A stretch of 46,177 nucleotides of DNA, from positions 1 through 46,177 of the forward strand of contig CAZNWT010000026.1 of the NCBI GenBank assembly GCA_964576795.1, read 5' to 3'. This DNA is from an uncultured Victivallales bacterium. Lineage in GTDB: Bacteria; Verrucomicrobiota; Kiritimatiellia; UBA8416. Below the pieces are notes generated by a model. It had not been told where the DNA came from, made no database searches, and saw nothing but the letters and a program-made list of their open reading frames with translations. Each line of letters opens with the position of its first letter. Position 1 is the first letter of the stretch. Positions 4,025 to 46,177 of this stretch are shown piece by piece. The position numbers were made by a program, and so were the translations under genes.

Positions 4025-5508
4025 TCCATTCCATGCTACCCGTCATCATTGCACAAGCCGCGCGCACATCGCGTTCAGGGGCGCCCGTCGGCCTAATTCT
4101 ATCTATGATTCTGGCGGCAGCCGTTATCGTGCTTTTTATCAGTTTTGCCAAGCGCTACAAACGGTGTCCTTCAAATCGAATTCTCGTAATTTATGGCAAG
4201 ACCAATCAAGGTGCAGCACGCTGTATTCATGGCGGAGCCGCTTTTATATGGCCGCTGATTCAAGCCTACGATTTTCTGGATCTTGAGCCATTCGTGGTTC
4301 CGATTGATCTCAAAAATGCGCTCTCGTTTGAAAACATCCGAGTCACTGTACCCACCACGGTGACCGCCGCCGTCTCAACCACAGCAGGCATTATGCAAAA
4401 TGCCGCAATCCGCTTGCTGGGCCTCACAGCCAAAGAGATTCAGAATCAGGCGCAGGACATTATTCTCGGACAAATGCGTGCCGTGATTGCCACAATGAAA
4501 ATTGAGGAAATCAATCAAGATCGACAGGCTTTTCTGGGAAAGGTCAACGGGGCAGTCAGTGGCGAACTCGAAAAGATCGGACTATCCCTAATCAACGTCA
4601 ATATCCGTGATATTGAAGATGAGTCCGGCTACATTGTCGCCCTCGGCCGCCGCGCCGCTGCCGAAGCCATCAACCAAGCCAACATTGACGTCGCCGAGCA
4701 AGAAAAAACTGGTAAGACGGGCGTCGCAGAGCGAAATCGCGACCAGCGTGTTGCGGTCGCTGCAGCCAATGCCGATGCCGAAATTGGTGAAGCCACAGCG
4801 GACAAAGAGCGTCGCACAAAATCGGCAGCACTCGATGCAGGTGCTGTGGAAGGTGAAACTCAAGCTGATGCAGAAAAAGCGGCCTTCCGAGCCAACCAGA
4901 GCGTTGCTGAACAGAGCGCCCGTAATCGGTCCGAATCCGCCTCACGCGAAGCCGATGGTGCGATTCGCGTAGCGCAGGAAGTAGCCGAGAAGCTTGCAGA
5001 AGAAGCACGAGCAGAGCGCGAGCAGGCTCGTCTGAATGCCGAGATCGTGGTTCCCGCTAATGCTGAACGCGAAAAGGTAGTGATTGCAGCCAATGCCCAG
5101 AAGGAAAAGTCTATACGCATTGCGGAAGGTGAAGCCGCAGCAACGCTGGCACGCATGACAGCAGAGGCCAAAGGTGTTCAAGCCATTTTGGATGGAAAAG
5201 CCGAAGGCTATGAACAGCTCGTGGGTGCATGCTCATCAGCAGAACAGGCGGCCTCTCTACTGTTGATTGAGAAACTGCAAGAAATAGCCCGAATTCAGGC
5301 GCAAGCCATTCAGGATCTTCCCATTGACAAGATCTTTGTATGGGATACAGGCGGCGAGAACCAAGGCATGGCCAATCTGGGACAGCGGATGATGGGAGCG
5401 CTCCCCCCGATGCAGGAACTTGCAAAGCAAATTGGCCTTGATCTTCCCGAGTATCTCGGAAAAGCCACGGGCAAAGAGACAAAGCCAACCGAATCACCAA
5501 CGGCATAG
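4021..5508 (+). CDS. floT: Flotillin-like SPFH/band-7 domain protein (FloT/YuaG-type)
   Basis: The 495 aa comprise an N-terminal membrane anchor, an SPFH domain, and a long Ala/Glu/Arg/Lys-rich coiled-coil (EA-repeat) region, which is the typical flotillin architecture. Confidence 0.85.
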   Translation: MIHSMLPVIIAQAARTSRSGAPVGLILSMILAAAVIVLFISFAKRYKRCPSNRILVIYGKTNQGAARCIHGGAAFIWPLIQAYDFLDLEPFVVPIDLKNALSFENIRVTVPTTVTAAVSTTAGIMQNAAIRLLGLTAKEIQNQAQDIILGQMRAVIATMKIEEINQDRQAFLGKVNGAVSGELEKIGLSLINVNIRDIEDESGYIVALGRRAAAEAINQANIDVAEQEKTGKTGVAERNRDQRVAVAAANADAEIGEATADKERRTKSAALDAGAVEGETQADAEKAAFRANQSVAEQSARNRSESASREADGAIRVAQEVAEKLAEEARAEREQARLNAEIVVPANAEREKVVIAANAQKEKSIRIAEGEAAATLARMTAEAKGVQAILDGKAEGYEQLVGACSSAEQAASLLLIEKLQEIARIQAQAIQDLPIDKIFVWDTGGENQGMANLGQRMMGALPPMQELAKQIGLDLPEYLGKATGKETKPTESPTA

Positions 5509-42496: not shown

Positions 42497-43984
42497 ATGA
42501 CGACTCAGACGAAGAGACCCAATATCATCATCATGTACGCAGATGACCTTGGTTTCGGTGATGTAGGGTGTTACGGAGCGACAAGCATCTCTACCCCTAA
42601 CATCGATCGACTTGCCGCCGAGGGGGTGACGTTTCATCGGGGTTATGCCACTGCGGCGACATGCACTCCCTCACGCTATAGCTTGCTCACTGGCTCCTAT
42701 CCATGGCGGAACCCATGCGCTACCATTCTTCCGGGGGACGCACCTCTGATCATTGATTCACAAATGCCAACACTGCCTGGCATGCTTCAGCATGCCGGTT
42801 ATAGAACAGGCGTTGTTGGCAAATGGCACCTGGGCCTTGGACAAAACGATCTCAATTGGAATCAAGAGATAAGCGCCACACCTAATGACGTGGGCTTCGA
42901 TTATTCCTATATTATGGCGGCGACTAATGACCGCGTACCGTGTGTATACGTGGAAAACCGCAAGGTTGTTGGGCTTGATCCAGAAGATCCCATTGAGGTG
43001 ACGTACGATTGGGATAAGGCAGATCCGAGTCAGCCCACAGGAAGACACAACCCGGAACTGCTGAAGATGAAGTATAGCCACGGTCATGATGCATCAATTG
43101 TTAATGGTGTCAGTCGTATCGGCCATATGCGCGGAGGTCGGGCCGCTCTCTGGGATGACGAATCCATGGCTGAAGTCTTTGCCGAAAAAGCAGTTGGCTT
43201 TGTTACCGAGAACAAGGACCAGCCATTCTTCCTTTATTATGCCTTCCACCAACCCCACGTCCCCCGTATACCGGGGCCACGCTTCAAAGGTGTCACCCCC
43301 CATGGGCCACGCGGCGATGTAATTGTCGAAATGGACTGGTGTGTTGGCGAAATGTTGGATGCACTGGAGCGATTAGGAATCAAGGAAAATACAATCGTCA
43401 TTTTCTCCAGCGACAACGGCCCCGTGCTTGATGATGGGTATGACGATAAGGCAGAAGCATTGAATGACTCTCACCATGCAGCGGGGCCGCTACGTGGTGG
43501 AAAATACAGCATGTTCGATGGGGGAACCCGCGTCCCATTCCTTGTCAGCTGGCCCGGAACGGTCACTCCAGGGGAGTCGAATGCACTTGTTAGTCATGTT
43601 GACTTTTATGCATCCTTTGCGGCCATGACGAGTGAAGAAATACACGACAATATAGCTCCAGATAGCATAAACATTCTTGATGCATTACTCGGCAGGAGCA
43701 GCAAGGGACGGGACGAATTGGTCGTAGAAGGCACCCGGGGAAAGACCGTCCTACAAAAGAACGAGTGGGTCTTTATCCCGCCGCATGATGGTCCCGCTTT
43801 GAATGTGGACACGAATATAGAGCTGGGCAACTCCACGAAGCCTCAGCTTTATGATCTCTCGCAAGATATCGGGCAGATCAGCAACCTTGCAGCAGAGAAT
43901 GTGGATATTGCCAGCAAGATGTCTGCTCGACTCAATGACATTTCTCAATCACAGCGATCTGCTGGTGGACCGGATCCAGTGTAA
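42497..43984 (+). CDS. Sulfatase (arylsulfatase family, formylglycine-dependent)
   Basis: 'IIIMYADDLGFGDVGCYG' and the fGly signature 'CTPSRYSLLTG', plus 'GKWHLG' and 'SDNGP'. Confidence 0.9.
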   Translation: MTTQTKRPNIIIMYADDLGFGDVGCYGATSISTPNIDRLAAEGVTFHRGYATAATCTPSRYSLLTGSYPWRNPCATILPGDAPLIIDSQMPTLPGMLQHAGYRTGVVGKWHLGLGQNDLNWNQEISATPNDVGFDYSYIMAATNDRVPCVYVENRKVVGLDPEDPIEVTYDWDKADPSQPTGRHNPELLKMKYSHGHDASIVNGVSRIGHMRGGRAALWDDESMAEVFAEKAVGFVTENKDQPFFLYYAFHQPHVPRIPGPRFKGVTPHGPRGDVIVEMDWCVGEMLDALERLGIKENTIVIFSSDNGPVLDDGYDDKAEALNDSHHAAGPLRGGKYSMFDGGTRVPFLVSWPGTVTPGESNALVSHVDFYASFAAMTSEEIHDNIAPDSINILDALLGRSSKGRDELVVEGTRGKTVLQKNEWVFIPPHDGPALNVDTNIELGNSTKPQLYDLSQDIGQISNLAAENVDIASKMSARLNDISQSQRSAGGPDPV

Positions 43985-44164
43985 TTTCCAGGGGAGCATC
44001 ACCCGTAATGTGCTTGTGTAACGTAGCCGGAACCTAATGATGTATCCCGCATTTACGCCGACAGGGCAAAGCCCGCACTTTCGAATGCACGGCAAAGCCT
44101 AATGGATGACCCCCAAAGCTTTCTGAACACTCTCTCCTCTCTCCCTCTCTACCCTCTCACTCAA

Positions 44165-44313
44165 AGTCCCACCCCGGACGGCGCCGACCGCACGGCGCGA
44201 CCGCCGTTGTTGTTGTTCCGATCCGCGTTCACGTTGGCAGCGTTGTTGCGGTCCGATGCGCGCGCGTACACGCTCGCATTGTTCCAATTGCCGCCGCGAA
44301 ACCCGGCGCCGTC
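44165..44313 (-). repeat. DGR template repeat (TR); boundaries approximate because no VR copy is available
   Basis: The minus-strand reading frame encodes '...GFRGGNWNNASVYARASDRNNAANVNADRNNNNGGRAV...', which is the CLec-type DGR template signature. There are 11 Asn codons in 28 codons, including AAC AAC AAC AAC at 44206-44217 (minus strand). It lies immediately 3' of avd on the same strand. Confidence 0.75.
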
Positions 44314-44504
44314 TTGCGCCTGTGTCCCGACCCCCGGCCTCCGCCGGGGGCGCATTGCCGCGCCCCGGAATGGCCCGAAGGCCGTACCGAGCCGCCGCTT
44401 CCGTATTCTCTCGTCCAACCGGACGAGACGGACCACAGGCCGGGTGGGTACACCCGCGCCTCGGCGGCCGAACCTTGATCCGACCGCAGCGAAAACACGG
44501 GCTT

Positions 44505-44849
44505 CTACTGCTCCACACTCTTCTGCCAACCGCCCAGCATCTTGCCGATTTCCGTCAGACTCTTCGCGCAGAAGCACCACGATCCCCGGCTCATGCACCG
44601 CGCGTCGCGCGCGAGCCGAAGCAGATACCGCAACTGGTCCAGCGTCAGACTCACGCGGCTGAGCGTCAACGCTTTCGCTTCGCCCTTCGCCATCAGGGCC
44701 GCGGCCACCAGATCGTCCTGAACATCCAGACTCTTGCCCATCAGACGTTCTCCCAGCAGAAACCGTTGGTCGCGCGGGAACTTCCCGACCTTATGCAACA
44801 GCCACACGTTGACCTCGTACATCTTCTCCACGATCGGCGGCATGTCCAT
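44505..44849 (-). CDS. avd: DGR accessory variability determinant (Avd), a four-helix-bundle protein; start may be MYEVN at 44822
   Basis: The 114-aa basic helical protein 'KFPRDQRFLLGERLMGKSLDV...LDQLRYLLRLARD' matches the four-helix-bundle Avd/TIGR02436-like family. Its 5' end overlaps the RT 3' end. Confidence 0.7.
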   Translation of the reverse strand: MDMPPIVEKMYEVNVWLLHKVGKFPRDQRFLLGERLMGKSLDVQDDLVAAALMAKGEAKALTLSRVSLTLDQLRYLLRLARDARCMSRGSWCFCAKSLTEIGKMLGGWQKSVEQ

Positions 44850-46059
44850 CCGAGCGCCCTCCCTTCTCCGATACGCGGCTCGCGGCCCGACGCCCCTTCA
44901 TCCCCGGCAGACCGTACTGGTTGATGATGGGGAAGCGATCATACAGGCATTTCCGTATCCGATACGTATCCCCGTTCAGCGCGTGTGCGTGGAAGCTCTG
45001 CGTGGACTGCCTGATCTCCCGCAGTAAAGTCGCCTGACCTTCCAGATCCGGCCACAGCGCATGATACTCCCTCGTGTAGCGGTTCATCCGGCGAATGAAC
45101 CGCGTCACGCTCATCTTCTTGAGCTTCCGGCGCTCCGGGAACAGGCGAAACCCGAGAAAGCCGATGCCGCGTCGCACGGGCACCGGTCCGCCATCAGGGT
45201 GCAACTCCAGCCGCAACCTGCCTCTCGCAAATTCGCGAATACCCCTCTCCCACTCGCGCACGGGTTCCTTTTCGTCCGCAAACAGCAGCATGTCGTCCAT
45301 GTAGCGCACATAGTACCGGACCTTCAGTGTGTGCTTCACGTACTGGTCCAGTTCGTTCAGATACAGGTTCGCGAAAAACTGGCTCGTCAGGTTCCCCAAT
45401 GGCAATCCCCGTATCCGCCCGCCGCATGCGACGTCCGGAGCCAGATCCAACCCCCCCAGCGCCATCTCCAACTGCATTTGCTCCGTGGGCCCCATGCTCG
45501 TCACGCTCGCCCCCGCGCCGGCCTTGCGTGCCAGATAGTCGCTCGAGTCCACGATCCGTTCCAGCAGCCCCAGCGCCCGTTCGTCAGCCACGTACCGGCG
45601 GATCAACCCCTTCAATATCTCGTGATCGATCGTCGAGAAGTAGCTCTTAACATCCAGATGCAACCCGTAGCGGCAAGCCCTCAAGAACCCGTGCGCCCGG
45701 TCCAGCGCCCGGTGCGTGCCCTTCCCAAGTCTGCACGCATAACTGTCGTGAATGAACATGCGGTCCAGCCGCGGCGCAACCACGTCATGCACCGCATGGT
45801 GGAGCACGCGATCCCTGACCGTCCCCGCCGCGATCACCCGCACCTTCGGGTCCCACACCGTGAACAGCCGATATTTCCCATGCCGATAGCGCCCCGCCGC
45901 CAACTGCTCATGAAGCTTGAAGACCTCCTTCTCAAGATCGAACTTGAACCGGGCCCCCTCGCCACGAAAACGCCGACCATGAGCCAACGTCGCCTCCGCC
46001 GCGCGGAACAGGTTCTCCACGCTCACAATCTCGTCATACACATGGCACAGCGGCTTCAT
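44791..46059 (-). CDS. Diversity-generating retroelement reverse transcriptase
   Basis: The RT motifs are in order: 'RLFTVWDPKVRVIAA' (motifs 1-2), 'SYACRLGKGTHRAL', 'LHLDVKSYFSTIDH', the DGR-specific motif 4 'GLPLGNLTSQFFANLYLNELD' (SQ rather than the QG..SP of retron/group II RTs), 'YVRYMDDMLLF' (YMDD) and 'GIGFLGFRL'. It is collinear with Bordetella phage BPP-1 bRT. Confidence 0.88.
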   Translation of the reverse strand: MKPLCHVYDEIVSVENLFRAAEATLAHGRRFRGEGARFKFDLEKEVFKLHEQLAAGRYRHGKYRLFTVWDPKVRVIAAGTVRDRVLHHAVHDVVAPRLDRMFIHDSYACRLGKGTHRALDRAHGFLRACRYGLHLDVKSYFSTIDHEILKGLIRRYVADERALGLLERIVDSSDYLARKAGAGASVTSMGPTEQMQLEMALGGLDLAPDVACGGRIRGLPLGNLTSQFFANLYLNELDQYVKHTLKVRYYVRYMDDMLLFADEKEPVREWERGIREFARGRLRLELHPDGGPVPVRRGIGFLGFRLFPERRKLKKMSVTRFIRRMNRYTREYHALWPDLEGQATLLREIRQSTQSFHAHALNGDTYRIRKCLYDRFPIINQYGLPGMKGRRAASRVSEKGGRSDGHAADRGEDVRGQRVAVA

Positions 46060-46072
46060 CCAAAAATCGCCT

Positions 46073-46177
<105 letters not shown>

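Follow-up and report, generated by a model that had tools for sequence, protein, structure and literature searches.

At the right-hand end of contig CAZNWT010000026.1 from an uncultured Victivallales bacterium (assembly GCA_964576795.1; 46,177 nucleotides, all of which are referred to below as the window), the minus strand carries a diversity-generating retroelement (DGR) in which a conserved structured RNA lies ahead of the template repeat (TR) rather than behind it, and this position is the one unusual feature of the element. The reverse transcriptase (RT) gene, the accessory gene avd and the TR are all located between 44158 and 46059. A longer assembly of the same locus was found by performing an exact-protein look-up of the RT (ENA ERZ27316330 k141_144963, 48,269 bp; hereafter L001), and with its help the order of the element can be read as target gene with its variable repeat (VR), RT, avd, structured RNA and TR, all on the minus strand. 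In our analysis, the RNA may correspond to the spacer (Sp) RNA of the Bordetella phage BPP-1 DGR, circularly permuted to the 5' side of the TR and essential for RT/Avd binding and priming in a sizeable DGR lineage including this clade and a sister clade. We give this reading a probability of about 0.45. The existence of the RNA itself is well supported by comparisons between the sequences of related loci.

BPP-1 is the only DGR with RNA requirements known in detail, and these are located downstream of the TR, whereas in the present element covarying RNA occurs upstream and nothing of the kind downstream. In other respects the element is ordinary: it adds one member to a very large family, and its missing target is an assembly artefact. 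A DGR had already been proposed in a sequence-only reading of the window, made without any database searches, and this call holds in the light of the RT, the Avd, the TR and a TR/VR pair in which 14 of the 15 mismatches occur at TR adenines. The features of the window are listed in Table 1.

Table 1. Positions of the retroelement and of the adjoining features in the window (position 1 is the first letter of the window)
Feature	Position	Strand	Basis or remark
DGR reverse transcriptase, 422 aa	44791-46059	-	Open reading frame; Pfam RVT_1; best PDB match bRT (8ub7)
avd accessory gene, 114 aa	44505-44849	-	Pfam bAvd; overlaps the end of the RT frame by 59 nt, in another frame
Conserved structured RNA, 194 nt	44309-44502	-	From avd stop to TR; covariation, covariance model
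Single-stranded CCCACCC with invariant A	44442-44448	-	Proposed pairing with TR 3' end
TR, 154 nt, 31 adenines	44158-44311	-	TR/VR alignment in L001; equals L001 3872-4025
Flank downstream of TR	43985-44157	-	No conserved or unusually stable RNA; right-hand cassette edge
Convergent sulfatase gene	42497-43984	+	
Last genuine bases, VR-proximal hairpin to RT start codon	46060-46076	-	Identical to L001 2107-2123
Homopolymer artefact of assembly or sequencing	46077-46177	none	G, C, A and C blocks; unmatched in L001; outside the element

Structured RNA between avd and the TR

The DNA of the spacer between avd and the TR is 84-87% identical to that of the relatives, as compared with about 75% in the coding parts. 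In the consensus structure obtained with RNAalifold from 11 relatives, a long bulged hairpin (P1) is followed by the single-stranded segment ACCCACCC and then by a long-range helix, which encloses three hairpins and has a 3' strand ending 9-20 nt ahead of the 5' edge of the TR. This structure contains 64 pairs, 32 of which show compensatory changes. When the structure was kept fixed, 93.5% of the cells were paired and double (compensatory) changes were present at 31 of 60 pairs, as against 13.8+-2.3 in shuffled controls (none of the 500 shuffles reached the observed value) and 10-14 when the partners were slid. The minimum free energy (MFE) of the window sequence gives a z score of -4.24. A covariance model built on the RNA scores 177 bits in the window and 136-208 bits in 12 close relatives. 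Among 166 related loci it recovered the close clade only, the matches in distant DGRs being unconvincing and those in L039 and L054 weak.

A scan of the whole cassette against Rfam at E<=1, including the families RT-1 to RT-19 and thus the BPP-1 spacer motif RT-10, yielded no match to this RNA. The match with the Clostridiales-2 family (20 bits, cut-off 58.6) is sub-threshold and unrelated. An open frame runs through the spacer; a coding role was rejected in view of the 1-2-nt insertions and deletions observed among the relatives and of the pair-compensating changes.

Homology with the relatives stops abruptly at the TR 3' end in 12 cases out of 12. In the 176 nt behind the TR, neither unusual stability (MFE z = +0.46) nor conservation in the 12 relatives was observed, so that, by computation, no structured spacer of the BPP-1 type was found directly downstream of the TR, and no minus-strand terminator was found in this flank. 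A purine-only tract, GAGAGGGTAGAGAGGGAGAGAGGAGAGAG, directly follows the TR on the minus strand (44100-44157) and is absent in the relatives.

Pairing with the TR 3' end in the close clade and in a sister lineage

The CCCACCC motif of the single-stranded segment is complementary to GGGTGGG at the TR 3' end (44168-44174), and the next strand after it belongs to the long-range helix and pairs with a segment just upstream of the TR. Among the TR sites, the 3' end is the preferred partner of the single strand in 8 of the 11 close-clade sequences, compensatory changes in the pairing were detected in L093 and L095, and the cognate duplexes of the close clade are more stable than the non-cognate ones (permutation p = 3.5e-4).

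A sister lineage (L005-L024), whose RTs are 42-48% identical to the present one, shows the canonical order VR-avd-TR-RT. Its members are mostly metagenome-assembled genomes (MAGs) labelled Omnitrophota, Planctomycetia or Elusimicrobia, and the close relatives of the window's clade include MAGs labelled Lentisphaerae and Elusimicrobia. The avd-TR spacer of the sister lineage measures mostly about 180-240 nt, and some of the TR-RT gaps are only 10-30 nt long, which leaves no room for a downstream spacer resembling that of BPP-1. The spacer contains a 5' hairpin and a long-range helix with compensatory changes in 6 of its 7 pairs; a second alignment of this lineage, which starts too far 3' to include the 5' hairpin, shows the long-range helix only. 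Here too, a single-stranded segment can pair with the TR 3' end (CGAAAGAAAGGGGUCC with AGACCCCUUACUUUCU in L005, for example), and the two covary extensively. The mean energy of the cognate duplexes amounts to -19.9 kcal/mol, as compared with -14.4 kcal/mol in the non-cognate ones (permutation p < 5e-5). The sister lineage thus provides stronger support for the pairing than the close clade.

Comparison with the BPP-1 spacer RNA and proposed mechanism

In BPP-1, nearly all the cis-acting RNA is located in the spacer downstream of the TR, where an Avd-binding stem-loop, the template:primer duplex, the cPRT Stop, the Thumb Ring and a bRT-binding stem have been described (Handa et al., bioRxiv 10.1101/2023.10.23.563531). 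The template:primer duplex consists of TR117-129 and the primer strand Sp47-56; two nucleotides further on, Sp59-70 and a segment just upstream of the TR together make up the stop duplex (bioRxiv 10.1101/2023.10.23.563531). The RNA described here resembles the BPP-1 Sp RNA in that a strand pairing with the TR 3' end is followed at once by a strand pairing just upstream of the TR, and in its long bulged hairpins. It differs in its connectivity, which is permuted: the whole scaffold lies ahead of the TR, whereas the 140-nt spacer of BPP-1 lies 3' of it, and internal hairpins, not the TR, connect the two strands of the "stop" helix. The two RNAs show no sequence similarity.

The following mechanism may be proposed. 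The RT, avd, RNA and TR would be transcribed as a single RNA, and the upstream RNA would be bound by the RT and Avd. The single-stranded CCCACCC would then pair with GGGTGGG at the TR 3' end and thus set the start of the cDNA, while the adjoining long-range helix, which ends shortly ahead of the TR (9-20 nt), would act like the stop duplex of BPP-1. The adenine-mutagenised cDNA would replace the VR, guided by the IMH (initiation of mutagenic homing) sequence and a hairpin, and would in this way rewrite about 14 codons of the ligand-binding face of a lectin-fold protein.

Several observations weigh against this mechanism. Another TR site pairs better with the single strand in 3 of the 11 close-clade sequences, and A.C mismatches occur in the pairing in L004 and L169. 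In the window's clade the CCCACCC/GGGTGGG pairing is short and GC-rich. RNAalifold pairs the CCG located behind the motif with the first three bases of the TR, which partly competes with the proposed duplex. The permutation tests mentioned above treat the sequences as independent, kinship among them being uncorrected, and the roles suggested for the RNA in priming and stopping are inferred from topology and covariation.

A second account of the RNA also has a substantial chance of being correct, somewhat short of even: the RNA located between avd and the TR would be real, without being a permuted primer of the Sp type, and might serve as a protein-binding handle, as a processing or stability element or as a translational regulator, the priming being set elsewhere. 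The imperfect pairing in L004 and L169 is in line with this account, as is the fact that the covariance model detects no homologue in more distant DGRs, so that the RNA gives no sign of being a universal requirement. However, the vicinity of the TR contains no other conserved or structured element, and the same arrangement recurs independently, with strong covariation, in the sister lineage: first a hairpin, then a single strand able to pair with the TR 3' end, and lastly a helix closing beside the TR 5' end. This order also matches that of the adjacent template:primer and stop duplexes of BPP-1.

If the RNA is indeed a permuted Sp-like scaffold, it would mean that the DGR ribonucleoprotein tolerates a permuted RNA, and it would provide a rule for the TR boundaries and the cis elements in DGRs devoid of a downstream spacer. 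Being self-contained in that case, the avd-RNA-TR unit would account for the occurrence of the RT gene on either side of it, and this compact module would be usable in engineering. The 5' location of the structured RNA plausibly makes the lineage a new mechanistic variant. A published conservation survey extended no further than 40 nt upstream and 100 nt downstream of the TR; our literature search yielded no paper describing a scaffold upstream of the TR.

Reverse transcriptase and Avd

The best match of the RT among the solved structures is bRT, the RT of the Bordetella phage DGR (E 1.9e-42), as against 2.7e-20 in the case of the best group II intron RT. The segment GLPLGNLTSQFFANLY aligns with GIPIGSLTSQLFANVY of bRT, and LGNLTSQ, which corresponds to the motif-4 signature [I/L]GxxxSQ, is likewise aligned with bRT; YVRYMDDM aligns with the catalytic motif of bRT, the YMDD box being kept. 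The number of RT homologues amounts to 2916 at E<=1e-20. A retron or group II identity was not supported by the profile searches, since the NCBIfam group II profile scores 108 bits (cut-off 300) and the retron profile 33 bits (cut-off 235), and no intron or retron RNA was detected in the Rfam scan of the cassette. The DGR type assigned to the RT on the basis of LGNLTSQ in the sequence-only reading is therefore confirmed by the best structural match and by group II and retron profile scores far below the cut-offs. As compared with bRT, an insertion of about 40 aa separates two aligned blocks at residues ~158-217 (window ~45409-45588); both its length and its sequence vary among the relatives, and it is longer in P0010.

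The Avd protein scores 51.4 bits with Pfam bAvd (cut-off 40) and 78.3 bits with NCBIfam DivGenRetAVD, slightly below the cut-off of 80. An Avd-like gene overlapping the RT 3' end by some 30-60 nt had been predicted, and both the Pfam score and the overlap given in Table 1 agree with this. The overlap between the two frames is not kept in the relatives.

A fusion of RT and Avd, or a frameshift between them, was considered in connection with RT homologues of 520-704 aa and rejected because the relatives carry avd as a separate open reading frame (ORF), with or without overlap; the extra residues are the translation, in the other frame, of avd and the spacer. The public RT gene calls continue in this way through avd in P0002, P0015 and P0016 (631-704 aa), as well as in P0003-P0005, P0007 and P0018. 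Three of the long calls extend through both the spacer and the TR and end in GFRGGNWNN..., and avd was left uncalled on contigs with overlong RT calls (L167, and L086, where the ORF runs to the contig end). These calls are an artefact due to open frames in GC-rich DNA, which hides DGRs from annotation. The fact that they run through avd and the TR confirms the order RT-avd-TR.

Template repeat, variable repeat and target protein

The limits proposed for the TR in the sequence-only reading (44165-44313) were about right, and the repeat itself was called properly. Its translation reads GFRGGNWNNASVYARASDRNNAANVNADRNNNNGG, with GFRGGNWNN...RNNAANVNADRNNNNGG. The TR 3' end is GGGGTGGG (44168-44175), and this IMH*-like end differs from the VR at a single T/C position, as expected of IMH versus IMH*.

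A search for an adenine-restricted match to the TR at the 3' end of an ORF had been suggested as a means of finding the VR. A 154-nt VR was indeed found in L001 (1924-2077), outside the window and 49 nt upstream of the RT. The VR shows 15 mismatches with the TR over the 154 nt, 14 of which are located at TR adenines, the remaining one being a T>C change near the 3' end; in the first 135 nt there are 14 adenine mismatches and no others. As a result of these differences, asparagine codons of the TR correspond to I, T, G, S, H, Y and L in the VR protein.

The diversified protein, which had been regarded as not identifiable from the window, is a secreted 494-aa protein encoded in L001 (590-2074) directly upstream of the RT, with an N-terminus resembling a signal peptide. 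Pfam FGE-sulfatase, named after the formylglycine-generating enzyme (FGE), covers residues 226-470, and the VR occupies the last ~50 codons, about 446-494, at the C-terminus. Modelling of the target, which had been recommended in order to look for a C-type lectin (CLec) or FGE fold, gave an AlphaFold model with a predicted template modelling score (pTM) of 0.83, consisting of an N-terminal beta-sandwich followed by an FGE/CLec domain; the best PDB matches of this second domain are formylglycine-generating enzymes and EgtB. The beta-sandwich (residues ~38-181; predicted local distance difference test, pLDDT, >90) has no Pfam match. The target family comprises more than 6,600 homologues, most of which are about 480-520 aa long. 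TvpA of Treponema denticola is an FGE-sulfatase/CLec target of a DGR. The present protein resembles targets of this kind in its FGE-like lectin fold and in the location of the VR in the last ~50 residues, and differs from them in its N-terminal beta-sandwich without a Pfam match.

A hairpin, GCAGGGGGC-GTA-GCCCCCTGC, with a 9-bp GC stem and a 3-nt loop is present 11 nt past the VR (L001 2088-2108). It is kept in all 11 relatives examined, with a variable loop (GCAGGGGGC-NNN-GCCCCCTGC). An IMH and a GC-rich hairpin 3' of the VR, which would serve in target recognition, are thus both present. In L167, three tandem copies of about 110 nt with strong internal pairing occur between the VR hairpin and the RT start (about 1790-2125), and in the other relatives the gap between the hairpin and the RT is 30-50 nt long.

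The element thus has in common with the BPP-1 DGR (mtd-avd-TR-Sp-brt) an RT of the same clade, an Avd partner, adenine-specific TR/VR differences, a VR at the C-terminus of a protein with the C-type lectin fold and a GC hairpin just 3' of the VR. It differs from BPP-1 in its order, target-RT-avd-TR and not avd-TR-RT, in its chromosomal rather than phage location and in its target, an FGE-type CLec protein with a signal peptide and not a tail fibre.

Activity of the element

Two further points weigh against present diversification by this particular element, which is putative: the VR is identical in three assemblies (L083, L084 and L085), and no promoter-like site or terminator was found. The identical VRs and the lack of a promoter would fit a fossil, a DGR that has decayed or is inactive at present and does not diversify its target, and we take this to be improbable. 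Against such decay stands the intact and conserved state of the RT, Avd, TR, hairpin and RNA element, and the absence of non-adenine drift between the VR and the TR across the first 135 nt speaks for recent templating. The three assemblies with identical VRs may come from a single sample series. Moreover, when contigs of a 73%-identical relative from two samples (L087 and L088) are compared over 5,069 bp, they differ at 38 positions only, all of which are located in the VR.

These two sequences correspond to the same element and have identical TRs (L087 TR, 4308-4459; L088 VR, 1441-1592). The VR of L088 shows 20 adenine and 23 non-adenine mismatches with its own TR, versus 17 and 2, respectively, with the TR of L167 (3904-4046). 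Two explanations may be given: cross-templating by the TR of a second DGR, the related DGRs having IMH ends in common, or a chimeric assembly inside the VR.

Gene order among the relatives

The same order was found in the close relatives L003, L004, L086, L087, L091, L167, L168 and L170. All the close RT homologues (56-84% identity) with contigs reaching the target have an FGE-type target adjoining the RT, then Avd and the TR. In order to describe the layouts more broadly, the 80 nearest RT relatives, with one genome per species, were annotated for the RT, Avd and adenine-biased repeats. The plain order VR-avd-TR-RT was found in 24 of the 80 loci, and four more had this order with an extra VR or a second cassette. 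The order VR-avd-RT-TR occurred in 19 loci, and VR-RT-avd-TR was complete in 12; in 10 others RT-avd was found on truncated contigs. The RT therefore precedes avd in 22 of the 80 loci. In a second set of 85 further loci, mostly metagenomic, this was the case in 13 (6 complete VR-RT-avd-TR and 7 truncated RT-avd). Both sets were picked by similarity to the present RT, and these fractions do not describe DGRs at large. The architecture, which had been thought uncommon, is not rare: VR-RT-avd-TR recurs as a minority arrangement, and within this clade it is the rule.

According to the main text of Wu et al. (2018; PMC5758913), the Avd-containing Architecture B comprises the subtypes B1 (avd-TR-RT), B2 (avd-RT-TR) and B3 (TR-(avd)-RT), with 48 variants overall. 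As described there, it resembles the present element in having a core of avd, TR and RT on one strand and a CLec-type VR, likewise without any other accessory gene. The order RT-avd-TR is absent from the three subtypes named in that main text. Architectures are not discussed by Yan et al. (2019), and a text search of the literature for "RT-avd-TR" yielded no papers.

Contig end, genomic context and origin of the cassette

From the RT start, L001 and the window are identical across 11,269 nt in the downstream direction and across 17 nt in the upstream direction, the latter being the only genuine bases preceding the RT ATG in the window. Where the window turns into homopolymer, L001 runs on into the hairpin, the VR and the target gene, in agreement with the view that the contig end is artefactual. 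A JGI contig carrying the same target (L085, 2,085 bp) stops at L001 2110, and the genuine sequence of the window begins at L001 2107. Because of these two end points, the break is placed at the GC hairpin behind the VR: the assembly of the window broke there, and the target and VR were lost from it. DGR contigs tend to break at the VR hairpin, and annotators should therefore be warned that seemingly target-less cassettes may result. It is very probable that the window contains most of a genuine chromosomal DGR, horizontally acquired and complete once the contig break is repaired.

The other genes of the window include RapA, PurB (adenylosuccinate lyase), UvrC, GH4 and GH38, i.e. housekeeping and glycan degradation functions, and no phage genes were found among the genes of the window. 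The neighbours being chromosomal and devoid of phage genes, the DGR is a cellular one and not that of a phage. The sulfatase gene beside the TR is convergent with it, as had been noted. The GC content of the cassette is 62-63%, as against mostly about 50-58% in the rest of the window and 52% in the kilobase beside the cassette, and the step is sharp, right after the TR at about 44100. The relatives likewise form compact cassettes of about 4 kb among unrelated chromosomal genes (L168 and L170). This picture is consistent with horizontal acquisition of the cassette as a compact ~4-kb unit. Its left boundary lies outside the data, as no assembly extends more than ~600 nt upstream of the target.

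The sharp GC step, the junk at the contig end and the jumps made by the assembler between TR and VR in related contigs (L094) would also be compatible with a chimeric contig, in which a DGR of 62% GC was joined by mis-assembly to a chromosome of 52% GC. We regard this as very improbable: L001, which was assembled separately, has exactly the same junction between the TR and the sulfatase gene as the window, and compact cassettes among unrelated genes in the relatives fit horizontal transfer.

The least probable reading, to which hardly any weight can be given, is that of a remote target on which the cassette acts in trans: it would account for the lack of a VR in the 46-kb window, and some DGRs in related loci have a second, more distant VR (L014 and L044), but the VR of L001, with its adenine-type mismatches, adjoins the RT, all the close relatives reaching the target have it adjacent, and no further remote VR is needed to explain the element. 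The absence of a VR and target from the window had been correctly noted, the best match of any 50-nt piece of the TR elsewhere in it having at least 22 mismatches, which is no better than chance. Of the two locations then suggested for the target, that just beyond the contig end, giving the order target-RT-avd-TR, was borne out by L001, and the remote locus found no support.

Upstream of the target, L001 contains a 91-aa ORF (285-560) whose start resembles a signal peptide and which has an internal repeat (GGSYDGYDEE / GGSYDGDA) and no Pfam match. This ORF probably lies outside the cassette, because it is absent upstream of the target in L168. In L094 (1,956 bp), the TR is followed at 1927-1956 by the sequence which follows this contig's own VR (CTTGGGCACTTGGGGGTGCAGGGGGC); the TR and VR have identical 3' ends, at which the assembler seems to have jumped from one to the other. 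The JGI metagenome to which L085 belongs also holds a second, distant DGR-type RT (34% identity), on L121 (Ga0307929_1047655).

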